From Octopus vulgaris (Eukaryota), in the NCBI GenBank assembly GCA_951406725.2, contig OX597828.1, positions 77,314,001 to 77,378,000 on the forward strand: 64,000 nt of DNA, in the 5' to 3' direction. Positions 836 through 63,790 of the stretch are shown in pieces (within the stretch, counting starts at the first letter, position 1; the number at the start of each line of letters is the position of its first letter). The notes beneath the pieces are model-generated. The model was not told where the DNA came from. It did not search any database and worked only from the letters and a program-made list of their open reading frames with translations. The translations under genes and the position numbers were made by a program.

Positions 836-1357
836 TCAACGAGGAGTTTGCATATTAAGATGCGTTTTGAATTTTTCAAAAACATTCTCCTTGTTAATTC
901 TTCCTTGTGTGGTGATTCCGTCTTTACATTGGTAGAAGGGGAATATGTAAAATTTGGGATTTTTGTCTTTAGCGCACGAGTCTATGTGGCTACTTAGTGG
1001 AATTTGACGGTATTTTGGGAGATTTATTTGTTCTTTATGGACCGCTACTCTTTTACGTAAAGGGAGGCTCGTTTGTCCAACATAATTATGTTGGCAACCG
1101 GCGCATGTGAGAACGTAGATAAGGTTCTCGGAGGAACAGGAGAAGTTGGTCTTGATTTTAAACTTTGTCCCTTGTTTGAAGATAAATTCAGAGCCTTCAA
1201 ATAGGAAGGAGCAGGTGCCACAGTTTGGGCGTGCACATTTTTTAACTGATGGGGGTGAATGTGGTGTGTGAAGTTTGGCATTTGTCAAGAGTTTTTTCAA
1301 AGATTTATGTTGCCTTTTACATTTGAGGATTTTGTGTGTATTGATAATGTTATTCAT
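836..1357 (-). pseudogene. GIY-YIG endonuclease domain of the Penelope-like element (decayed ORF end)
   Basis: CARPNCGTC Cys linker (Neptune-type), FSCSSENLIYVLTCAGCQHNYVGQT (LIY...YVG = GIY-YIG), conserved R in LRKRVAVH, and CCHH-type residues. Confidence 0.9.
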
Positions 1358-2183
1358 TTTTGGGTCTGTTGACAGTAGAGTGAGGTTTTGTATGATTGTG
1401 GGGTATGCTTCGTTATTTTTGGGGTAGTGAGTGGAAATGTATGGAAGTATTTTGGGGTAGTGTGTGTTGTTGGGTTGGGTGGTTTTCAGTGTAATGTTGT
1501 CTAGTTCTTTGGCACGTTTTATTCCACACTCTATAAGGGTGGAGGGATATTAGCGTTGTAATAGTGTTTTGGTTTTTTTTGAGGTTTTGAAGGCGTATTT
1601 CTCGAGTTTTTGGATCCGAGACAATGGTGCATACCCTTTTAGTTAAGTTGAAATGGATATTTATCTTGGTGTGTTTTGGGTGGCATTAGCTAAAGAGGAG
1701 GTATTGTTGTGAGTCTGTAGGTTTGTGGTAGATGTCTGTTATGATTTGGTGTGTGTGTTTGTGGTATGTAGTAGAGCAGCTATGATTTAAAGCAGTGATG
1801 ATAATATGACCAAGAAACATACAAAGACTAACTCTACCTTCCTAGGATTTCCTCGCCGGAATAATAAATTTCTTTCGGTAGTTTTCAAGCTGGTAAATGT
1901 CACCACGGCGGACTGGTGACAGCGGTGGTTTACATGACCGCCAGTGATTTGGAAAACACAGATACCGATCAAGGAAAGATAATCCAAGGATGTCCCTTAC
2001 AAGGGACAGATATATATACATTAATGACGAAAGATCACGTGAGTTACGTAATCTCATTCATTTCCATAGCTGTTTGCACTGAGATATCGTTTATATATTA
2101 ACACACGCACGCACACACACACACACACACATATATATATACATACATACATACATACATACATACATACATACATACATACA

Positions 2184-3866: not shown

Positions 3867-5112
3867 GGTCAGGCAAAATGACCTGACACATTTGTAGGTT
3901 AAATAAAAGGCATTGTTTTTCGTTTCTTTTTCAGTTGCTGCCATGAATTGGACTGGTGAGCATCGCGCTTTCATTGTGGAAACGTTTATCAAAACAAACG
4001 ATTCTGTAACTGCAACACAAAGTGCGTTCCGTTTGCACTTCAATCTTGGTAGACATGATCCCCTACCAGCTCGAAACACGGTCTTGTTATGGGTTACCAA
4101 CTTCAGAGCTACTGGATCTGCATTGAAACGAAAATCAACCGGCCGACCTCGCACCGCCAGAACTCCAAAGAATGTGGCAGCGGTAAGAGCTTCAGTTCAA
4201 CAGTCTCCACGCCGGTCCACATTTAAACGCGCCCAGGCTCTTAGACTTTCCGAAAGAAGTTTGCGAAGAATTCTTCACAATGATCTTCAAATGCATCCAT
4301 ACAAAATGATGTTGGCACAAGAACTCAGCGAAAGAGACAATGAAACTCGCAGAGCATTGTGTTTGGAAATTCAACAACATGTCCCCCATGCAGCAGTTGT
4401 GTTGTTCAGTGACGAGGCACATTTTCACCTGTGTGGCACAGTGAATAAGCAAACCTTCAGATACTGGGCCGAGAACAACCCTCGTGAGTTGCATGAACGC
4501 CCTTTGCATTGTCCTCGGGTGACTGTATGGTGTGCTGTGGCAGAATTCGGTATATGGGGCCCGTACTTCTTCGAAGAAGACAACGTTACAGTGACTGTGA
4601 ACTCTGATCGATATTGTGAGATGCTAGAGACTTTTCTCAGACCAAAATTGAATATGCTCCACGATATGGACAATGCTTGGTTTCAACAGGATGGGACAAC
4701 ATCCCACACTTCTCGACGTGCGATGGGGATTTTGAGGAATATGATCCCTGGTCATTTGATCTCATTGCGTGGTGACATCGGTTGGCCCGCCCGTTCACCT
4801 GATTTAAATCCGTGCGATTTTTTTCTCTGGGGATACCTCAAGTCAAAGGTATACATTAATCGCCCTCGATCTATTGAACAACGTAAAGATGCAATTCGTC
4901 AAGAAATTGCTGCCATTCCACATGAAATGACCCGCCGAGTTATTGACAACTTTCGTGAACGCCTTCGACAGTGTGTGGACAATAATGGATCCCATTTGAC
5001 TGATTTAATTTTTAAAGCATAATGAAACAAAATGGCATTAAATGTACTTTTCTTTACTTCATTTGCCTTTTATTTAACCTACAAATGTGTCAGATCATTT
5101 TGCCTGACCCTG
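3864..5112 (+). mobile_element. Full-length Tc1/mariner DNA transposon, DD41D (rosa/Visitor-type)
   Basis: 49-bp TIRs at 3864-3912 and 5064-5112 with one mismatch, TA target-site duplication (3862-63, 5113-14), single intact ORF. Confidence 0.95.
3943..5022 (+). CDS. DD41D transposase, 359 aa, uninterrupted
   Basis: ATG at 3943 (MNWTGEHRAF), GRPR linker, FSDEAHF, WFQQDG and WPARSPDLNPCDFFLWG motifs; 41 residues counted between the second and third Asp. Confidence 0.93.
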   Translation: MNWTGEHRAFIVETFIKTNDSVTATQSAFRLHFNLGRHDPLPARNTVLLWVTNFRATGSALKRKSTGRPRTARTPKNVAAVRASVQQSPRRSTFKRAQALRLSERSLRRILHNDLQMHPYKMMLAQELSERDNETRRALCLEIQQHVPHAAVVLFSDEAHFHLCGTVNKQTFRYWAENNPRELHERPLHCPRVTVWCAVAEFGIWGPYFFEEDNVTVTVNSDRYCEMLETFLRPKLNMLHDMDNAWFQQDGTTSHTSRRAMGILRNMIPGHLISLRGDIGWPARSPDLNPCDFFLWGYLKSKVYINRPRSIEQRKDAIRQEIAAIPHEMTRRVIDNFRERLRQCVDNNGSHLTDLIFKA

Positions 5113-6531: not shown

Positions 6532-8802
6532 GTTTCTTTATTGGCCACACAGGGCTGCACAGAGATGGGACAAGTTACAAGGTAGAGCTCTTCTTTTTGG
6601 GAGAAAAAAAAAGGTAGTGTAGGTTTTCGATCAAAAGGGATCGTAAAAGGGAAAAAAGAACAAAAAAAAGAAAAAGAAGGCAAAGAAAAAAAGAAAAAGT
6701 AAAAAAAAGGTCAAGAAAAAAAAAAGGGAAAAAAGAAAAGAAAAATGAAAAAAGAAGAAAAAAAGGGGGAGAGGAAAAAAAGAAAAAACGATCAATAGGG
6801 ATCGTGTATCACAGTGTCATGATGTATGGTGTAAAGGGGAAAGCAAGTAAGGTTTATCCGTGGGAAGAAAAGCCTACGAAAAAGACCACGGTAACCTTGG
6901 TCAATATTGTTATATGTTACCACATTTGTTTGCAAGTGGGTAACCCTCTGTTTTCAATTTCTGGTTTCATAGGATTATGCTCAAGGTGGCTTCGTCAATC
7001 ATACGTGCCATCCTTGCTACATTCACCCATCTTTTTTTAAAACATTCGCTAGCTAAAACTTGCCTCTCTACTCTCACCTTCCTTTTCAAGTGGTACTTGA
7101 AGAAGTTGATGAGAGGTTGACCAGAGAGGAAAGCGTTTGTCTCCAATCCTTTCAGACGCGTCCACCAGATACATTCTTTCGCCATAGCCACAAGGATGAT
7201 GAAAATAGCTCTTCCTTCCCGTTTGAAGGAAGGAGACGTGACAATATTGACGATAGAGTCAGCTGATAAACCGACTCGTCCCATACGTGACAGCAGTCGT
7301 TCGACATAAGCCCACAGGTGGGAAATTGCTGGACACTGCACGATTGCGTGCAGAGCGGTTTCGTCGCTCTGACCGCTTTGGTTGTGATGGAGTCACTCAA
7401 GGTTGACCCAGGACGGCAGAGTTGCTTGAGAAGCGAAAGAGAATGCCTTGTAGTTTGGTGATGGTAGGGTCGGGACAAGGTATGACGGTCAGGCGGTAGT
7501 AGATGACGGACGCGATGTACGTGTTCGCCACCTCCGCCCGACCTTTTAGGGACAGTTTCCTCTCGGTCCATTGCCGGGCGAGAGTGACTACCCTACTCGT
7601 TATCTCGTTCCAGTTCTTCTCCATTTGGAGGTCCGGACCGAACCAGACCCCGAGCAACTCAACCGGGCCGTCTGTCCAGCGTCCCACGACGGAGGTACTG
7701 GTGGACGGCATGGGCTTGCTTCTCCAGCTACCTAGTCGCAAGCCCACTGACTTTTCCCGGTTGATTTTTGCTCCTGTCACCGCTTCGTAGTTTTTCAGTG
7801 TCTCGCCGACCTGCTCGATGTGTTCGTGGCTAGACGCTATGACGGTGACGTCGTCTGCGTATGCAGACACGCTCGTCCAGCATCCCAGTTCTCGCGGGAT
7901 GCCCCTCAGAGTTGCCAGCTTCCGCAATAGTGGCTCGAGAGTCAATACGTATAGAAGTGACGAGAGGGGGCATCCCTGACGAACCGAACGTGCGATGTCG
8001 AAAGGTCTCGGTAGATGTCCATTTACGCGAATTACCGAACGGATGCCTCTGTACAAAGCGACTATCTAGCCGCGGAAGACGGGACCGAAGCCAGCCGCTC
8101 TGAGGACTGCCTCCAAGTATCGAAAGCTTTTGATTGGTCTAAATTGATCAGCGCCCCACCCATGCCAGGTTCGTTAACTACCCTGTCTATGATGTAGCGC
8201 ATCAGGTGGAGGTTGTCATGGATGCTCCGGCCCGGCACGGCGCACGTTTGCGCCTTGTCGACCAGTTTCTCGATGACAAGCGCCAACCTCTTTGCTAACA
8301 CCTTGGCCAAAATTTTCAAGTCTGCATTAAGCAGAGTGATGGGCCTAAAGTTATCTATTACATTTCCCTTGTTTAGATCTTTCTTCAGCAGTGTTACGGC
8401 TCCTCGGCTCACAAAACCAGGAATGCTCCCATTTTGCTGCCAGTTGCAGTACACCGCTGCAAAGACGTCTCCAAACAAGTCTGGCATACAACTGTAAAGC
8501 TCGTAGGGCAGACCATCCAAACCCGGCGATTTGTCCCTCGAGCATTCTGCCATCGCGTCCTGCACGTCCGCCGCCGTGATGGCACCTTCGCAGAACCCTG
8601 CCTCTCTTGTCGGGAGTTGTGGTAGGCTGTGTAGGTAGGCACTGAAGTCCACCCTACGTTCTTGCCCGCCACTCGTCCCGAACAGTCGGGCAAAATGCTG
8701 TTGAAAGGCCTCACACATTTTACTTGGCTCGATCAATTCGCGCCCCTGTTCATCTACCAGAGACCGAATGGTGGCTTTGTTGCCCTGTTGCGCCTCTGCC
8801 AC
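6531..8802 (-). mobile_element. 5'-truncated L1/Tx1-clade LINE (ORF2 RT, frameshifted) inside a (GATA)n array
   Basis: ORF pieces 8062-8802, 7397-8056 and 6967-7341 contain KSPGLDGLP, NFRPITLLNADLKILAK, DQSKAFD, VRQGCPLS, AYADD and LSLKGR. T-rich 3' UTR and AATAAA (6537-6542) run directly into (TATC)n, and (GATA)n flanks both ends. Confidence 0.9.
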
Positions 8803-8830
8803 AGATACATAGATAGATAGACACACAGTC

Positions 8831-8918
<88 letters not shown>

Positions 8919-9830
8919 TGATAGATAGATAGAGTACTAATACGTATGGTTGGCTGCCGGATTATTGTGATTTTCGTCACTGTTTAAAATTTTATTCCAA
9001 TTGTTTCCATATCTGATATTTGGATTAAGTTTAGTATATCAATTATGAAAATGAAATTCATTTTTTCCTATAAATCCATCAACAAAATGTTTTTAGCCTT
9101 GAAAAGTTGCATAATTTTGGTATTTTAGCCAATCGGATGCGAGTATTTTACACGTTACCGTGCCGAAAAGCTGTGTTTCCATAGTAACCAAAGATGCTGC
9201 TCATGCGCACAAGGAAGAGAAGGAGATGTGTGAAAGATAATCTTCTACCATAGTAATACTCCTGTGTTTTTCTCCGACACAACATATGAATGAGAAACCA
9301 CACGAGGTATGAATGAACGAAGAAACATATGAACGAGAAATCTCGTAAGAATGAGATGAATAAGTAAGGGAGGGGGTGTTGTTAAATCGGCGGTGGGAGC
9401 GTTTCAGCTCTGTGTGAGTATAGGTGTGTATTTGTGTGCGTGTACAAGAGGAGTATGTGAATGTCTGTATGTGTAAAAGCTTTTAAATATTTAATTCTGT
9501 CGCAAATGTTTTAATGTTAATTTCATTCGTGTATATTTTAATGTTTTGACTGTTATTTCTAGCACTGTTTTGAGATGCCGTTGAACCCACCCCCACCCCC
9601 AGCCCCGATGATGGAAGAGGCAGCAAACGCGCTGTTTTCTGATTGGCTGAAAATTCAGAAAATTATCAAACTTGGAACACTTGTAATATTTTGGCAAAAT
9701 TTTTCTGGAATAAATGAATAACAAAATCGGATTCAGCGTTACCATTAAGCTAAATGAGATGAATTCTTTATCACAAAATACAGACCCCTTTTGAACGCAT
9801 CTACAACAAATGACTTATCCACAACCACCT

Positions 9831-20675: not shown

Positions 20676-22444
20676 AAGACACCGGGGGAAGTTTAAGATG
20701 TAAGAACGATAAAACAGAGCTCCGAAATCTATCCACAAACATCGAAAACAAGGACATCGTATGGAGCCAAAGATTTACTAACAAAGGATTGGACTGTACC
20801 CGAGTAAGTAATGTTCATTCAAATTTATTACTATTTTCGAAACGAAATGATGTATTTTGACTCGATATCATCTCCACCTCTAACACAACACATGTAAACA
20901 TGCGTGACACATTACGATCCATCAACACCAGATCATCCCCGACACCAAACACCATGTACAAAGGAACTACGAAGAAATTAAATGCCACCGATATTATTCA
21001 ACCCAAGAATAACAATCCGGGGGTACGTACTTTAAACTTACAACACAAAATGTACGAAAAACTACACGTGCAAAACAATGTGACAACAGAAATGAACGGA
21101 CCGGTACCCTACGAAAATGACGACCGTCAAAATAATGGGCCGGACGTTGTTCCTCATGTCCCGCAAATAAAACCCAAAAGACATAAATGGACACGTGAGG
21201 AATACATTTCTATCCTACACGCATACTTCACAGCAGTACTCTACCCAAAAAATGAAAACACAACACATACATATAAAATATAAAAGAAAAATAACATAAA
21301 TATAGACTTGGATACAGCAATGAACCCTAATAAACTAGCTAACGTACGAAGATACATTCTCAACGCAAAAAAAATATCAGAAATAGAAATAGAACATCTA
21401 AAAGAAAAAAAACCAGGAAAATGTAGATAGAAGCCACACAACAATGCCCAATAATATAAACACTGAAACAGTAAAACACGAAGACAAACGTAACATTCCC
21501 AAGAAACACGATGTAAACAAAAAACAACAAACCCAGACCGTAAGGATGCATAATAATACACGACAAACACCAAGCCAAAACACGGCAAACAAACATATAA
21601 ATAAGAAAGAAAGCGACACAAATCTAAAACCTGGAAACAAAGAAGGGGAGCCTAATGATTATGATAATATAAAAAGTAAAATAATCAAAGAACTGAAAAC
21701 CACAGAGCTCAAAATGGACCACCGACCATACCTCCCGAAAATCAAAATAGACAAAACAACAACATCAATTATAAACAACATAAACCTAGCCGTCACGGAA
21801 CTAATAGCCACTGAAACAAAAAGCGATATCACTGAGCTAAATGACTTAGTATACGCAGCAGCCACTGCAACCACAAAAGAAGCTGGATACTCACTCAAAC
21901 CCATCCAAACAGGAGTACCACCACCCAAACAAACCCTGCGGATAAATAACATCCAAAACAAAATACAAAAAATGAGAAAAGATCTGTCGATTCTTAATGA
22001 AATCAGTAGACAATCAACGCTACTGAGCAGCAAAAAGAAAACAAAAATACTCCGCAAATATAACATCACAGAAAAAGATTTACCTGAGATAAAAGAAAAG
22101 CTGAAACAAGATATCCTTGCCAAAGCACAAAGGATCCGCCGGTACGAGAAACGCCAGCTCTTCTTTGAACAAAACAAAAAGTTCAACTCCAACTACAAAA
22201 AGTTCTACCAAGAACTTGGCAAAAATAAAATAGAAATCACTGCAGCACCAACGGCAGAAGAAGTGGAAGAATTCTGGAGAGAAATATGGTCGGCGAACGA
22301 ATAACCAAAAAAAAGGAGTATCAAAACAACAAACTCGGCATCTGAGCAATTTGGACCCCCATAAAAACTGAAGAGGTCACCCAGGCACTGCAAAGACTAA
22401 GCAACTGGAAGGCACCTGGGCATGACAAGATCCCCAACTTCTGG

Positions 22445-24007
22445 TTGAAATATCTAACAGGAATGCACAAAAAGCTGACTGAAAACTTTAACAACATACT
22501 AGCAGAGCCAGAGACAATGCCTGAATGGCTCACGAAGGGGAAAACCATCTTAATTCCCAAATCCAATGAGACAGCAAAACCAGAAAACTACAGACCAATA
22601 ACCTGTCTCCCTACAATGTACAAAGCATTTACTGCAGTGATATCGCAAAGGTTGAACAAGCACCTGGACGAAAACAACCTGCTACCAGAAGAGCAGAAAG
22701 GATGCCACAAAGGCTCATATGGCTGTAAAGATCAACTAATGATTAATAAAGCCGTAACTGAAGACAGCCACAGAAAGAAGAAATGCCTCAGTATGGCCTG
22801 CATCGACTACAAAAAGGCGTTTGATAGCATCCCCCACACATGGATCCTCGAAACACTAGCCATTAACAAAGTAGCACCAACAATCATAAAATTCATAGAG
22901 CACTCTATGAATAAATGGCAAACAGTCCTACACCTCCAAACAAAAGAGGGACTCATGAAAACCAAAGACATCCCCATTAGAAGAGGAATATTCCAGGGAG
23001 ATACGCTCTCTCCACTCCTTTTCTGCTTGGCACTGTCACCTCTATCTGATATGCTAAATAGAACTGGATGCAGATATAAATGTTACGGCAAAACGATCAG
23101 CCACCTTTTATATATGGATGACCTAAAACTATACGCTGCAAATGACAAACAGCTGGAAACACTATTAAAGACAGTTCATGGATTTACCAAAGAAATAGAT
23201 ATGAAATTTGGATTAGAAAAATGCGCCAAAGTAACCATGAAAAGAGGAAAACTAGTTAAGAGTAGCAACATCACACTAGATAAAACCAATGAAATAAAAG
23301 AATTAGACCAAAGCCAAACTTACAAATACTTAGGAATCCATGAACTAGATAAGACACAACACACACAAATGAAAGAGAAAATAAAAAAAGAATATTATAG
23401 ACGAGTTAGATCAATACTAAAAACAGAGCTCAATGCTAAAAACAAGATAATAGGTATTAACACTCTAGCTGTCCCAGTTATAAGTTACAGCTACAATATC
23501 CTTAACTGGACACTAAATGAACTGACCAAAATAGATAGGAAAACAAGAAAAATAATGACAGGATCTAGGATGCATCACCCAAGATCTGACATAGAAAGAC
23601 TATATATACAACGTATAGAAGGTGGTAGAGGCCTTATACTGCTGGAAAACTACTATAAAATAACCACCATAGGACTGCAAACATGTCTACTTCAGAAGGA
23701 AGGAAAACTGATCCAGATAGCGGCAAAACACGAGCAAAACAAAAAACTGTTCTCAGTATTTAAGGAAGCTGACAAATACAAACAAGAAATCATACCACCT
23801 AATAAATATGAAGAAGAAGAAGAAGAAGAAGAAGAAGAAGAAGAAGAAGAAGAAGAAGAAGAAGAAGAAGAAGAAGAAGAAGAAGAAGAAGAAGAAGAAG
23901 AAGAAGAAGAAGAAGAAGAAGAAGAAGAAGAAGAAGAAGAAGAAGAAGAAGAAGAAGAAGAAGAAGAAAAAACAAAAGCTATAAAACAAATGAAAAATAG
24001 AAACTAA
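22445..24007 (+). pseudogene. Reverse transcriptase segment of the Dong/R4 ORF
   Basis: NYRPITCLPTMYK, IDYKKAFDS, GIFQGDTLSP, LYMDDLKLY and YKYLG motifs; stops or frameshifts lie on both sides. Confidence 0.9.
23810..23968 (+). repeat. In-frame (GAA)53 tract inside the Dong ORF
   Basis: Seen directly; encodes poly-Glu. Confidence 0.95.
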
Positions 24008-30661: not shown

Positions 30662-30923
30662 TAATAATAATAATACAGGTGATGACGATTACTACTTTAT
30701 ATATATAATTGATATAGGGTAAAAAATTTTTCGGGAAAATAATTTTATCAATGGCCAGCATATCAAAAAGTGCCTTTAAAGGTAAAATTTATACATAATT
30801 TACAAGATAAGGGCAGAAGAAAAATTCTAATGCCAGATACGCCGAAACAAAAAAATTGTCGATAACCATTAAATTTATGCGTCTCGAAACAAACCGATAG
30901 AAATCTCTAAAAAAATTCGTTAT

Positions 30924-30982
30924 TACCGTATTGGTCCAATTTCGGGGTTAATTCACAAGGAATTTCCCCCTCTTCAGCGGCA
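30924..30982 (-). ncRNA. Type-I hammerhead ribozyme motif, canonical core
   Basis: Minus strand reads TGCCG-CTGAAGA-GGGGGAAATTCCTTGTGAATTAACCCC-GAA-ATTGGACCAAT-A-CGGTA. Confidence 0.85.
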
Positions 30983-31296
30983 CATATGCGAGATATAAAT
31001 GAAATACTTATTCATACCCACGGAAGAAGCAAGCACCAAGTCCCGAGCAGACTTAAGTACCCCAAATATATCCAAAATAGAAAAATCTTCCGCGCAGCTC
31101 GAGAGACGTGTGATTCGAACTAGAAACTTTCACAGAGTAATAGAATCCGGAAGTGAACACTAATCTATTTATAATTGATATAGGATAATTTTTTTTTTCT
31201 ATTTTGGATATATTTGGGGTACTTAAGTCTGCTCGGGACTTGGTACTTGCTTCTTCCGTGGGTATGAATAAGTATTTCATTTATATCTCGCGTATG

Positions 31297-31355
31297 TGCC
31301 GCTGAAGAGGGGAAAATTTCTTGTGAATTAACCCCGAAATTGGAGCAATACGGTA
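31297..31355 (+). ncRNA. Type-I hammerhead ribozyme motif, canonical core (inverted partner)
   Basis: Reads TGCCG-CTGAAGA-GGGGAAAATTTCTTGTGAATTAACCCC-GAA-ATTGGAGCAAT-A-CGGTA. Confidence 0.82.
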
Positions 31356-31480
31356 ATAACGAATTTTTTAGAGATTTCTATCGGTTTGTTTCGAGACGCA
31401 TAAATTTAATGGTTATCGACAAATTTTTTGTTTCGGCGTATCTGGCATTAGAATTTTTCTTCTGCCCTTATCTTGTAAAT

Positions 31481-31511
<31 letters not shown>

Positions 31512-51912: not shown

Positions 51913-52343
51913 ACATGCAGCATCAACGGCAGTTTCTGCCCCACTAGCACCACTAAACAAACCTAAGCAACTCATCCGCTTGCTCTTTCATTAACCCTTT
52001 CCCTATCCAATTTATACGACAAAGCAGCCATACTTTGACAACCAACATCCACACTTCATGTTCACACAAACAACAACATTCTCAACGTAATTCATAAACA
52101 ATTTCTCCTTTGCTCTTACTATTTTTCTCGCCTTCCTTTTCACAACTGTTTCCATTCTCATTTTCATTTCATAACACTAATATCATCTAATTTTATACAT
52201 TCACCGTTCTACTTACTACCGCTTCATTATTACCACAGCAGTTGCAGGTTTTCAACTGCTCTACAGTTACATACTAACCCTTCAATTAATATTTCATACT
52301 TCACAGTGTATCTCACTGCATTTCATCACGCTTCTTTTACATC

Positions 52344-55300
52344 ATGCCCCGAAGGAAGACTTCTTCAATTGGACGCAAAACTGCGAAAGCTGCAAGAACA
52401 TCAGCAAGGAGGGCCAATGAATCGTCAGTCGAAACTTACATCATACGATCACAAAATGCTCGACGTACTGCCAATTCAAGAGCACTTCAAACAGATCATC
52501 GGGGTAAAGTTCGACGAACTGCTGATGCTGCCTCAACTGCTGCTGCACGAGCTGCAGAGAAGAAAAACGAATGCGCTACACGCCTGCTCAGGAATGCTTC
52601 CAACATGGCTGCTGCGCGAGCTTCCTACACCTTACAACAGAGATGTACTATGCTGCAGACTTCAACTCAACAAAGAGCTCATAGACGAGGATTTTCAACG
52701 CCATGCAGCTCACGATGGTTATTAAAGGCTTTCCAATACAACCCTAACCTTCATTACGATTGCCGCCACCCAGATATGAACATTGGCAATATGTCCATCA
52801 CTTTCTCTTTCTGCAATGCTAAGAAGTGGTCAAGAGAAACTCCTGCAATGTGTTGCGCTAATGAAAATGTTAACCTCTCTTCACTGCAGGATCCACCACA
52901 GCTCTTAAAGTCACTCTACGCTGGCACAACTACGGAGTCGAAGCATTTCCTGAATAACATCCGGAAGTACAATTGTGCATTCCAAATGACATCTTTCGGC
53001 GCTAATGTTGTTCAAGAAGGAGGGTTTATGCCTATTTTCAAAGTGCCGGGACAGGTTTACCAAAGGATAGGATCACTCGAACCTGCTGAAAATCAAGATC
53101 CTCATATCCTTCAACTGTATTTTGTAGGCAATTTACATGAGCAAACCACCGGACGAAATTCCATTTCCACAGGTACTAACTTTCAGTTGATAATGCAACT
53201 GCAAGACCTTTTGCACCAGAAAAATAGCTACGTACGCATCTTCAAGTATACCTTGGAAACTGAAGATTCATCAAATTTTAATGTTATCTTTGATGCCCAG
53301 AAAAGACCATCTAGGGAACATGCAGGCCGTTACAATGCACCCACACGCAATGAAATAGCTGTACTCCTTCACGGTGAACAGCACAATCCCAGAGACATTG
53401 TCCTCAGGTGACGTGACACCACCCTCCAACGAATTAGTGAAACACACAGATCATATGATTCACTTCAATACCCACTTCTGTTTGTTAATGGTGAGGATGG
53501 CTACCACATCGGTCTACTACAGCAACATCCTCAAAATCTTAATGAACATCTCAACAAGCCAATATCCTGCATAGACTTCTACTCATACAGATTTATGACC
53601 CGAAACAACTGCTGTAATCACCTCCACCAGTCTCGAGAGCTGTTTCATCAATTTGCAGTCGATATGTGCGCAAAAAATGGAATCAGAGAGATTGTGTTTC
53701 ATCAGGTTACATAAAAAAAAATTGCGATCTGAGAGCTACATCCATCTCCGAGATGCCATCGACAATGATGCTGCTCCAAAAAACATAGGAAGACTTTGCA
53801 TCTTGCCTTCTACATTCACTGGAAGTCCCCGATACATGCATAAAAGAACACAGGATGCAATGACCTTTGTCCGCCATTACGGCAGGCCTGACCTATTCAT
53901 AACTTTCACATGCAATTCCAAGTGGAAGGAGATTCAGGCCAAACTCTTCTTCGGTCAAAACCCTAAAGACAGGCATGACCTCCTCGCCCGAGTTTTCCAT
54001 CTGAAGTTAATCTCTCTCATGGAGCTCATACAAAAAGGGCAAGTCTTTGGGCCCATACAATGTGACATGTACACAATCGAGTGGAAAAAAGGGGCCTTCC
54101 ACATGCTCATATCCTGCTTTGGCTCTCAGCGAAGATCAATTCCAATGACATCAACAAGATAATCTCTGCAGAGCTTCCTAATCCAGCTTTAGACAAAGAA
54201 CTATACGAAATAGTTAAAGCAAACATGGTACATGGTCCATGTGGGCGTGGATTGAACATGAACTCACCATACTTGAAGGACAGCATATGTTCAAAACGAT
54301 TTCCAAGGAGGTTCCTACAAGAAACTCAGACAGATGCTGATGGGTATCCATCATACAGACGCAGAAAACCAGAAGACGGAGATTTCACAGCAACTATTGG
54401 ACAGCACGATATTGATAATAGATGGATTGTTCCATACTGCCCACTCCTGTCAAAGACTTTCAATGCCCACATCAACGTTGAGTTTTGCAACTCCGTTAAA
54501 TCCATCAAGTACGTTTACAAATATGTAAACAAGGGTTCTGACGCTGCAATGTTTGGACTTCAACAAGAATACCGCCAGGATGAGGTGGCGCATTATCAGG
54601 TGGGACGGGACATAAGTAGCAACGAGGCTTTCTGGCGCATCTTTGGCTTTCCAATTCACCAACGACACCCCGCCATTCAACAGCTTGCAGTGCATCTGGA
54701 AAATGGTCAAAGAGTGTACTTCACCGATGCTAATGCTTCTCTGTTGGCAGAGGAACCAAGGGATAGCACACTCACTGCATTCTTCAAGCTTTGTCAAGTG
54801 GATCCATTCGCTCAAACCTTGCTGTATCCACAGATTCCATCGTACTACACTTGGAATGGAAAAAAATGGGCCCCACGGAAAGCAGGTCAAAATGTTCGTG
54901 GATACCCTGGCATTAAGATTCTCACTTGCCTTGGGCGAGTACACACAGTGCATCCCACTCAACAAGAGTGCTTCTACCTTCGTCTACTACTGCATGAGGT
55001 CAGAGGGCCAACGTCTTTCCAGGCCCTAAAAACCGTTCATGGACATGTCTGCACAACATACAGAGAAGCCTGCTATCGACACGATCTGTTAGAAGATTGT
55101 GCACAATGGGATGCAACTTTATTACAATCACCTAAAAGTCTCAGGGAACTATTTGCAGTTTTACTACAGGCATGCGAACTGTGTGATCCGGCCACTCTAT
55201 GGCTCAAATATAGAGACAACCTGGCTGAAGAATTTCAGCGCCAAGTTCAACTGCTCTATCCTGACTTGGAGGGTATCAGCAATGAAATCTATAACAAAAC

Positions 55301-56816
55301 ACTCATTGACATTGAAGACAGACTTGCTGAACTGGGTGGAAATGAATTGTCGACGTATGGTCTGCCACAAGCATTCAGGTCAGGGTCAAATAGCCTTCCC
55401 ACTGCTGTCATTCGTGAAACAACCTACGACACTCAAGCGCTTTCAAAGTACATTGTTGAAAATGAGCCTAAATTACTTCCAGACCAGCTGCAGGCCTACA
55501 GAACTATTCTTAATAGTGTACGCCAACGCGAGGGACGACTCTTCTTCCTCGGGAAAAACATTTATTACAAAGCTTCTCCTTGCAGAAGTTAGGCAGCATC
55601 AGGACATTGCAGTAGCCTCCTCTGGCATTGCAGCTATTTTGTTACCCGGTGGCAGGACAGCACACTCAACTTTTAAACTCCCATTCAATTTAGCAGCATC
55701 CGAAATGCCTTCATGCAACATCAACAAAAGCTCAGATTAGGGACAAGTACTTAAAATGTGTCATCTAATTGTCTGGGATGAGTGCACTATGGCTCACAGG
55801 GGAGCTTTGGAAGCATTAGATAGAGCCCTGAAAGACATCCGAGACTGTCAGGCTCCAATGGGAGGTGTAACGCTTCTGTTGTCAGGTGATTTCAGGCAAA
55901 CTTTTCCTGTCATTCCGAAAGGCACTAGAGCAGATGAAGTCCAAGCATGTCTAAAGTCCTCTACCCTGTGGCATCATGTTACAATCCTCAGTCTCACCAT
56001 TAACATGAGAGCTCAGCTACACGGCGACAAAATGTCCACAAATTTTGCCCAGGACATTTTGACACTTGGTGAAGGCAAGATGCCTCTCGATGCTGCAGGA
56101 CAAATGGAAGTGTGGTCATTTTCCTCTGTTGTTAATTCTGTAGATGACCTCAAAAACAAAGTCTTTCCCAACTTCACACAAAACTACCAACATCACAATT
56201 GGCTGTGTGAAAGAGCAATATTAGCTCCAAAAAACGTCGCTGTTAACAAACTTAATCAACAGCTAATGCATTCTCTTCCCGGCACTATACACACTTACAT
56301 GTATGTTGATACAATTCCAGATATAAATGAAGTTGTTAACTATCCTCCTGAATTTCTCAATTCAGTGGAGCCTCCTGGACTACCCCCACACATATTAGCA
56401 TTTAAAGTTGGAACTCCTGTAATGCTACTCCGCAATCTGGAACCACCAAGACTTTGCAATAGAACACGGCTGGTGATAAAGAAAATGATGTCACGCGTTA
56501 TCGAGGCGATCAATCTTTCTGGATGTGGAAAAGGTGATGACGTCTTTATTCCAAGAATTCCTCTTACTCCATCATGAGCAGAAATTCCATTTACATTCAG
56601 AAGACTGCAAAATTCCCCCTTCGTGTCAGCTTTCTCATGTCCATTAACAAATCTCAGGGTCAAACCCTCTCTGTAGCTGGTCTTCTCTTGGAAGAGCCCT
56701 GCTTCTCGCATGGGCAACTGTTTGTTGGCTGCTCAAGAGTAAGAACCAAAGGAAACCTTTTTCTATATGCTCCACAAGGAAAAACAAGGAACATTGTTTA
56801 CAGCGAGGTGTTATAA
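52344..56816 (+). pseudogene. Helitron RepHel (HUH Rep plus Pif1-family helicase), broken by stops and frameshifts
   Basis: Rep motifs: NIRKYNCAFQMTSFG, YDSLQYPLL, PDLFITFTCN, RGLPHAHIL (HUH), SIKYVYKYVNKG. Helicase motifs: GRTAHSTF, IVWDECTM, LSGDFRQ, INKSQGQT, SHGQLFVGCSRV. The Walker A motif is partly deleted near 55550. Confidence 0.95.
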
Positions 56817-62786: not shown

Positions 62787-63349
62787 TGTACATACACGCA
62801 CACACATATATACAAATACTATATATATGACGGGTTTCTCACAGTTTCCCGCTACCAAATCCACTCACGAGGCTTTGGTCAGTCCGAGGCTATAGTTAAA
62901 GACACTCTTTTAGGGTGCCACGCAGCGGACTGAACCATGAACCATGTCGGTAGGAAGCAAGCTTGTTACCTCACAGTCACGCCAATATCTTTTTACCACA
63001 CTAGTTACTACATCAGCAACAAATCTTCTATAAATAGAACGACAAACCACACATATAGCAATTTAGATACCCAATATAGCAACAATATAGAGAGTTTGTG
63101 ACATTATTTTTTTCCGGAAAATATTTTAAAATTCTGTTTTCAATATTCGAACTTCAAACGTTCGGACTTTTCCTGTTTACAGACGATTTGAGTGTGAGTG
63201 TAGGGGAAGGAAGTATGTGTGTGTATGAATATGTATGTATACATACAAACACACCACACACATCTACGTGGCACCCTAGGAGAGTGTCTTTAACTATATA
63301 TGTGTGTGTGGGTTTGTGTGTGTGCATGCGTGTATGTCTACTACTACTA

Positions 63350-63764
63350 ATATAGGATGAGGTTTTTTTACAGAAAAAAATTCCATCAAAAAATGTGGCA
63401 GCATATTAAAATACCTTTAGGGTTAAAATTATAAGCAACTTATAAATAAGGGCTAAAGAAAATTATTTCTATGCCAATATGCTGATGACAAACTTTGGAA
63501 AAAAGGGCGCATGTAAGTATCTTATTTATGTCTTTTCGTATTTTCTACTGAAGAGGAAGAAATCTATTATGAGATTAATTCCGAAATTGATTCAATATAG
63601 AAATAACGAACTTTTTTTTAAAATTCTATTGGCTAGCTTTCCTCGATTTCAGCTCTACGTGTTTTCTGTAGCGAGTAAATAATATGTGGAAATTGACGAT
63701 TTAAAAGTCTGTTATCAGCATATTGGCATAGAAATAATTTTCTTTAGCCCTTATTTATAAGTTG
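63350..63764. mobile_element. ORF-less PLE-type foldback element related to 30704-31484: tail 63350-63435, 61-bp inverted arms 63436-63496 and 63704-63764
   Basis: Arms caacttataaataagggctaaagaaaattatttctatgccaatatgctga are inverted; tail gcagcatattaaaatacctttagggttaaaatt resembles 30755-30790; (TA)n follows at right. Confidence 0.8.
63542..63603 (+). ncRNA. Type-I hammerhead ribozyme motif, canonical core
   Basis: Reads TTTCTA-CTGAAGA-GGAAGAAATCTATTATGAGATTAATTCC-GAA-ATTGATTCAAT-A-TAGAAA. Helix I is 6 bp, helix II is extended, helix III is palindromic. Confidence 0.88.
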
Positions 63765-63790
63765 TATGTATATATATATATATATATATG

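Follow-up and report, generated by a model that had tools for sequence, protein, structure and literature searches.

The question raised by this locus is whether a sequence near 63.6 kb that reads as a type I hammerhead ribozyme descends from a fold kept by selection in its parent elements, and what those elements are. The stretch analysed, 64 kb of Octopus vulgaris DNA and referred to below as the window, was searched with a descriptor that checks the helices. Exactly 3 motifs were found in the window, against 0 in 100 Markov resamples, and 7 other CTGANGA...GAAA matches were rejected as they fail the helix check. The motifs belong to two families, A (63.6-kb type) and B (31-kb type).

63542..63603, plus strand: type I hammerhead motif of family A, core 63548-63554 and 63583-63586
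30924..30982, minus strand: type I hammerhead motif of family B, the copy quoted by the earlier note, predicted cut 3' of the A at 30929
31297..31355, plus strand: second family B hammerhead motif, with the private helix III change TTGG-A-GCAA

The core of a type I hammerhead reads CUGANGA ... GAAA ... UH, and positions are given here in type I numbering. Both agree with the account in PMC4209133. The window motifs have this core in type I order. The segment 63542-63603 runs from the 5' strand of helix I (TTTCTA, 63542-63547) through CTGAAGA (63548-63554), helix II (GGAA/TTCC), GAAA (63583-63586), helix III (TTGA-T-TCAA) and U16.1 (63596) with A17 (63597) to the 3' strand of helix I (TAGAAA, 63598-63603). 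Cleavage is predicted 3' of A63597, as the earlier note had placed it. All of the strings quoted in that note were found in the sequence. The 31-kb site, however, is two hammerhead motifs in inverted repeat (minus 30982-30924 and plus 31297-31355) and not one, and TTGG-A-CCAA, given as its helix III, is correct for the minus-strand copy but not for the plus-strand copy, in which the G at 31345 is a private break. Helix II is also longer than had been described, a further inner helix being present past a 2x2 purine-rich internal loop.

Rfam scans of 63480-63700 and 30850-31450, at E values up to 10, returned no hammerhead family, which we attribute to the long helix II insert as the likely cause. 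A match to Rfam is a match to a library and not a defining biochemical feature of hammerheads. The scan of the whole window was set aside, since nearly all of the 150 matches listed from a total of 238 were to microsatellite-driven miRNA models. Plain minimum free energy folding of the 62-nt motif failed to produce the hammerhead (z -1.5).

The 63.6-kb and 31-kb elements are homologous, motif flanks included (74% over 119 nt, E 1e-12). The statement that all three helices change between them yet still pair was confirmed, with qualifications. Between the 63.6-kb motif and the minus-strand 31-kb motif, 6 of 13 pairs differ in both bases: helix I has 3 of them, one being a change to G-U, helix II has 2 and helix III has 1. 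None of the 13 is broken, and the remaining 7 are identical. The outermost helix I pair, a 14th excluded from this count, is U-A at 63.6 kb and a broken G.A in both 31-kb copies. When the same 12 changes were scattered randomly over the motif, with transitions favoured at 70%, all 13 pairs stayed intact in 947 of 2,000,000 trials (P about 5e-4). The comparison within the window had been regarded as the strongest evidence for selection. It contains just two lineages, and the series of subfamilies described below is stronger.

A strict motif pattern run over the whole genome, which is 2.8 Gb in size and rich in microsatellites, gave 983 matches compared with 7 for a reversed control pattern. A second pattern, allowing A10.1-U11.1 variants, gave 25 matches, of which 19 are homologous to the repeat units of the two families. 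The close relatives of each element, taken as the best 40 of 2116 and the best 40 of 2794 first-look candidates, are 93-97% identical. Thirteen hand-picked rows representing about 10 subfamilies were aligned. With the named structure, 94.1% of the 286 cells are paired and two-sided changes occur in 12 of the 22 pairs, while sliding the partners on the same rows left 29-48% paired; the rows are related and the shuffles ignore this kinship. An earlier set of 16 rows had given 93.4% paired and two-sided changes in 8 of 23 pairs. RNAalifold, given no structure, predicted 13 pairs from the 13 rows, 10 of them showing compensatory changes; these pairs make up helix I and both the outer and the inner part of helix II, and helix III was absent from its prediction. 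Helix III is mostly invariant across the rows, and parts of it, together with the first helix II pair, were fixed by the search patterns, which makes the evidence from these columns partly circular. The core positions are all invariant except N7, which reads A, U, G or C. Three helices surround the core and are backed by covariation, as in a type I hammerhead.

The B subfamilies could not be separated by clustering the flanks at fixed thresholds, and trees were used instead. One tree was built from the 3' flank only. Inspected by eye, it shows about three switches each for the first and the third pair of helix II and places the six pair differences between the window copies on different branches. 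Changes private to individual copies were also counted. In the 45 copies of subfamily A1 there are 18 one-sided breaks, 6 changes that keep the pair as a wobble and 0 two-sided changes; in the 79 copies of B1 there are 38 one-sided breaks and 18 keeps, and of the two-sided changes 1 keeps and 1 breaks its pair. At least one pair is broken in 16 of 45 A1 and 30 of 79 B1 copies. Since pairs are kept between subfamilies but are mostly broken by private changes, selection acted in the parent elements, as the earlier note had proposed. The pattern is that predicted by selection on master elements together with neutral decay of the inserted copies, and it supports this explanation.

The third helix calls for separate consideration, as its strand is nearly palindromic.

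63586..63596, plus strand: near-palindromic helix III strand AUUGA-U-UCAAU, giving 4 bp and a 3-nt loop as a monomer, or a 10-bp self-duplex interrupted by one central mismatch

The centre of the palindrome is 1 nt in subfamilies A1, B1 and B3 and GA in B2, with nothing unpaired in some copies of a family C, and the copy at L217 has a perfect 12-nt palindrome. In the monomer the helix III hairpin contributes only 0.2-0.5 kcal/mol (A1, B1). The self-duplex was calculated at -6.7 (A1), -8.9 (B1) and -3.1 kcal/mol (plus-strand 31-kb copy), energies which refer to isolated strands and allow a rough comparison. The only helix III change between the window motifs flanks the 1-nt loop; since no hairpin can close such a loop, this pair would form only between two motifs. 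The modelled energies and the palindrome suggest that helix III is likely to be suited to a double-hammerhead fold made of two motifs. A dimer is not obligatory, since a 4-bp monomer helix III with a 3-nt loop can form. Palindromic helix III strands acting in a double hammerhead are described for many animal type I motifs (PMC4209133, PMC7229834). Because helix III seems suited to such a two-motif fold, cleavage of a lone motif may fail trivially. Circular folding of one natural unit per family added little, with z -3.6 for A, in which the unit used has a private helix II change, and -1.3 for B, using crude shuffles in both cases.

Some unpaired bases are conserved as well. Neither the helix I bulge positions nor the AA in the 3' strand of the internal loop in helix II vary among the 13 rows, and terminal loop 2, one side of the canonical loop 1-loop 2 contact, varies in both length and sequence. 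The invariant bulge and AA are a candidate tertiary contact.

Other hammerheads were seen in the course of the search. Further families with a long helix II insert occur at L010:1254 (+), L084:2037 (+), L284:431 (+) and L340:8102 (-), their helix III being a palindrome that is loop-less or nearly so. Minimal hammerheads of the type found in Penelope-like elements (PLEs), with a 2-nt helix III insert, occur at L002, L033, L059, L231, L290, L318, L068 and L276 and span at least 2 further repeat families.

The elements that carry the window motifs were delimited from tandem loci. Such loci have one hammerhead per unit in both families, the unit being about 505 nt in family A and 462 nt in family B, with a GC content of 31-34%. 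Tandem units each with a type I hammerhead are present at L008, L018, L044, L060 and L080. The A and B units are 75% identical over 445 columns and outside the motif differ in 25% of 367 columns. Hundreds of copies are dispersed through the genome and these are truncated at the 5' end. No frame of at least 150 aa overlaps either window insertion and the units contain no reverse transcriptase plus GIY-YIG frame. They therefore have no protein-coding capacity, and no LTR structure was found, as for non-LTR retrozymes. Contigs from three runs presumed to be RNA, and from one other, match the family; as contigs do not reveal ends, strand or circles, these matches were set aside as evidence of expression. 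None of the papers listed for octopus or cephalopod hammerheads, ribozymes or retrozymes deals with this family, though the supplements of PMC7229834 and PMC4209133 may list the motifs.

Each window site is an insertion made of two inverted arms.

63341..63496, minus strand: left inverted arm of the family A insertion (L001), unit 157 to 312, ending at fixed site 2, without a hammerhead
63505..63765, plus strand: right arm of the family A insertion (L001), from about unit 466 to 218, close to fixed site 1, with (TA)n beyond it
30700..31197, minus strand: left arm of the family B insertion (L031), from unit 244 across the 462/1 junction to about 275, its end lying in a short TA run close to fixed site 2
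31194..31486, plus strand: right arm of the family B insertion (L031), unit 356 to about 185, ending near fixed site 1 and followed by (TA)n

The arm ends were examined in samples of both families, taken by position with exact 29- and 30-mers from downstream of the motif. For family B the first 100 of 400 matches gave 74 distinct loci with 142 arms. For family A, 87 matches gave 66 distinct loci with 110 arms, 12 loci, the window's own included, being left out. Arms end preferentially at B190 and B278 or at A223 and A311, pairs of sites 88 nt apart in both families. In family B, 104 of 142 arms end within 1 nt of one of these sites and 91 of the 104 then run into TATA/ATAT; the corresponding figures for family A are 72 of 110 and 53 of 72. 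Back-to-back loci have one arm at each site in 49 of 56 cases (B) and 29 of 40 (A), 78 of 96 in total, and never have both arms at the same site (0 cases); the remaining 18 have an end at neither site. Both window insertions obey the rule of one arm per site. At many two-armed loci the 5' ends of the two arms nearly coincide in unit position and make a fold-back junction, with hot spots at about B100, B121 and B142 and at A104-116 and A143-144.

The arms also bear on the state of the template. Of the family B arms extending as far as the predicted cut, 62 of 66 continue more than 10 nt past it, and of those of family A 31 of 36 do so. The template must therefore have been continuous there, either as a closed circle or as uncut tandem RNA. 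Arms exceeding one unit number 18 of 123 (B) and 12 of 93 (A), 30 of 216 in total, reach up to 1225 nt and carry the repeated unit only; the left arm of the family B window insertion (30700..31197) itself slightly exceeds one unit. The 5' ends near the predicted cut number 5 against 3.9 expected in B and 7 against 3.0 in A (P 0.03, uncorrected). As there is no clear pile-up at the cut, these ends provide no firm genomic trace of cutting.

PLE insertions are reported to have an inverted 5' copy, a tail of 30-40 bp at one end and a bias to microsatellites (PMC8557442); PMC3846280 prefers a different mechanism, self-priming on an antisense template. Families A and B share the traits of elements mobilised by PLEs, namely an inverted 5' arm, a tail at one end only, truncation at the 5' end and a microsatellite target. 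The two fixed ends correspond to the tail known from Penelope-like insertions, though it is longer here, the offset of 88 nt in both families comparing with the 30-40 bp of PMC8557442.

Young PLEs with open frames of 750-1090 aa exist in the same genome, so that the units coexist with autonomous PLEs as non-LTR retrozymes do. The window holds part of one of them at 836-1549 on the minus strand, the 3' part of a Neptune-like Penelope element with a zinc-finger-like linker and GIY-YIG. It is labelled Neptune-like from its motif order, the Pfam match to GIY-YIG being weak. This family has 20,814 first-look candidates with many near-identical open frames of 753 aa, and its 3' end reads ...CCTTACTATA and then (TA)n. 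The descriptor found no canonical hammerhead in it. Further transposon-like frames of the window, in order of coordinates, include the following.

3907-5022, plus strand: transposon-like frame
7397-8961, minus strand: transposon-like frame
21402-24007, plus strand: transposon-like frame
52290-56577, plus strand: transposon-like frame

Judged by motifs, one of these resembles a Tc1/mariner transposase, two look like non-LTR reverse transcriptases and one like a broken Helitron Rep/helicase.

A partner for the units was sought among the PLEs, the search covering a few PLE families and not being exhaustive. Neither the Neptune-like family (seed window 839-1549) nor the Penelope/Poseidon-like families (seed L054) showed homology to the units and both were rejected. 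Comparison of 60 PLE loci with the units gave short weak matches only, besides one nested copy, and 10 full-length PLE regions gave no homology. At 275 unit loci PLE protein matches lie beside or around the units, parted from them by TA runs or unrelated sequence where inspected, and such fragments were set aside as evidence for a partner. A two-armed family B copy (L237:3903-4255) lies about 180 nt from the start of remaining Penelope/Poseidon-like frames. At two loci (L168/L055 and L206/L012) units are found at TA runs just downstream of Neptune-like GIY-YIG frames, which is consistent with a shared target.

The families were compared with known systems. Non-LTR retrozymes are described as tandem non-coding units with a type I hammerhead, those of coral, mussel and axolotl yielding linear and circular RNAs, and PLEs are proposed as their mobilisers (PMC7229834). 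A 2026 preprint by Li, Clavereau and Pollet (10.64898/2026.07.22.740005) derives retrozymes from PLE terminal repeats and reports that 1 of 9 predicted retrozyme dimers cleaved in vitro. Like the metazoan non-LTR retrozymes, A and B are low-GC, non-coding tandem units with one type I hammerhead per unit and have many dispersed monomer-to-trimer copies alongside PLEs. At 462-505 nt the units are longer than the circles of 170-400 nt given by Cervera and de la Pena 2020 (PMC7229834) but fall within the range of 51-972 bp in the preprint. They differ from these retrozymes in that most copies are two-armed inverted insertions in (TA)n and not long arrays, and in that helix II is lengthened by the internal loop and inner helix; expression and circularisation have been seen for retrozymes whereas A and B are known here from genomic sequence. 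With PLEs they share 5' truncation, partial tandems, an inverted 5' copy, a one-ended tail, a microsatellite target and a palindromic helix III (PMC8557442; PMC3846280; PMC4209133), but unlike PLEs they lack a reverse transcriptase or GIY-YIG frame, and their hammerheads have full helices I-III and are not of the minimal PLE type. A weak palindromic helix III in tandem repeats is also found in the newt and axolotl satellite hammerheads that cleave as dimers (PMC7229834), though helix III is longer here, 4 bp being possible as a monomer, and the need for a dimer is less certain. A and B are predicted from these features to be a new family within a known class, the animal non-LTR retrozymes, and to be self-cutting.

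Other explanations have to be weighed against this assignment. That the paired changes are due to chance or to a non-catalytic hairpin, the motif being a relic, is hardly credible. It could draw on the lack of an Rfam hammerhead match, the broken pairs in over a third of A1 and B1 copies and the presence of only two lineages in the window; against it, the random trials described above already make the window pair alone improbable, and the core is invariant save for N7 in rows whose helices covary across subfamilies. We also consider it quite improbable that the units are terminal repeats (pLTRs) of an unseen autonomous PLE, the copies being its 5'-truncated ends. The inverted-plus-tail anatomy and (TA)n target are indeed typical of PLEs (PMC8557442, PMC3846280), Xenopus retrozymes resemble pLTRs (10.64898/2026.07.22.740005) and the partner search covered only a few PLE families. 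However, the 30 long arms re-enter the same unit and never coding sequence, and the PLE matches at the 275 unit loci are separate from the units where inspected.

An efficient monomer ribozyme is a more serious competitor, though on balance an unlikely one. In this case the helix I bulge would contact the helix II loop, the palindrome would be incidental and the template would be an uncut or religated linear tandem RNA rather than a circle. A helix III of four pairs can be capped by a loop of 3 or 4 nt, the bulge and internal-loop positions are invariant in the 13 rows, and monomers of invertebrate retrozymes cleave well (PMC7229834). Yet the fifth helix III pair has changed on both sides, from A-U to G-C or the reverse, where no hairpin can form, and other hammerhead families of this genome have loop-less palindromes at helix III. 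The ensemble probability of the monomer hammerhead fold for the 63.6-kb copy is 0.0016, a value from secondary structure that leaves tertiary contacts outside the model. Furthermore, an efficient monomer would be expected to cut a linear template before it was copied, yet 93 of 102 arms read through.

Given these results, we consider it highly probable that the window motifs are type I hammerheads in protein-free tandem repeats, which are most likely non-LTR retrozymes, likely to cut as pairs of motifs and likely to have been copied into (TA)n by a Penelope-like enzyme. The fold, covariation, units, truncated copies, two-site arms, continuity across the cut and long arms are directly supported, and from them we infer all of the transcript, cutting, circle and priming steps. 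A tandem transcript would bring two motifs together, allowing the palindromic helix III strands to pair with each other. Cuts would free a unit-length RNA, which a host ligase might close to a circle, and a circle with a single motif would cut poorly. A Penelope-like endonuclease/reverse transcriptase would then open (TA)n and, beginning at the two fixed sites, copy the RNA from each of the two DNA ends. Amplification would be limited to master copies that cut well, so that pairs would persist from one subfamily to another yet decay in single inserted copies. The 63.6-kb copy itself is probably a dead end, a truncated insertion with a single motif.

A more specific form of the retrozyme reading can be put forward as a tentative possibility. 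The hammerhead may be gated by dimerisation while having its own contact between the helix I bulge and the AA loop, so that the tandem would cut and the monomer circle survive, and a PLE enzyme would prime on this circle from both (TA)n ends 88 nt apart. If true, the PLE "tail" would measure how far apart two priming events fall on a circular template. The 88-nt spacing is equal in two families that have diverged by 25%.

Compensatory changes among consensus families of animal hammerheads are already known (PMC4209133). What is added here is a natural series of about ten subfamilies from which it can be read which pairs and unpaired bases have been kept by selection. A short non-coding substrate with two fixed priming sites would be useful for asking how retrozyme RNAs integrate (PMC7229834; 10.64898/2026.07.22.740005), and the same substrate bears on how Penelope-like elements make tandem and inverted insertions (PMC8557442).
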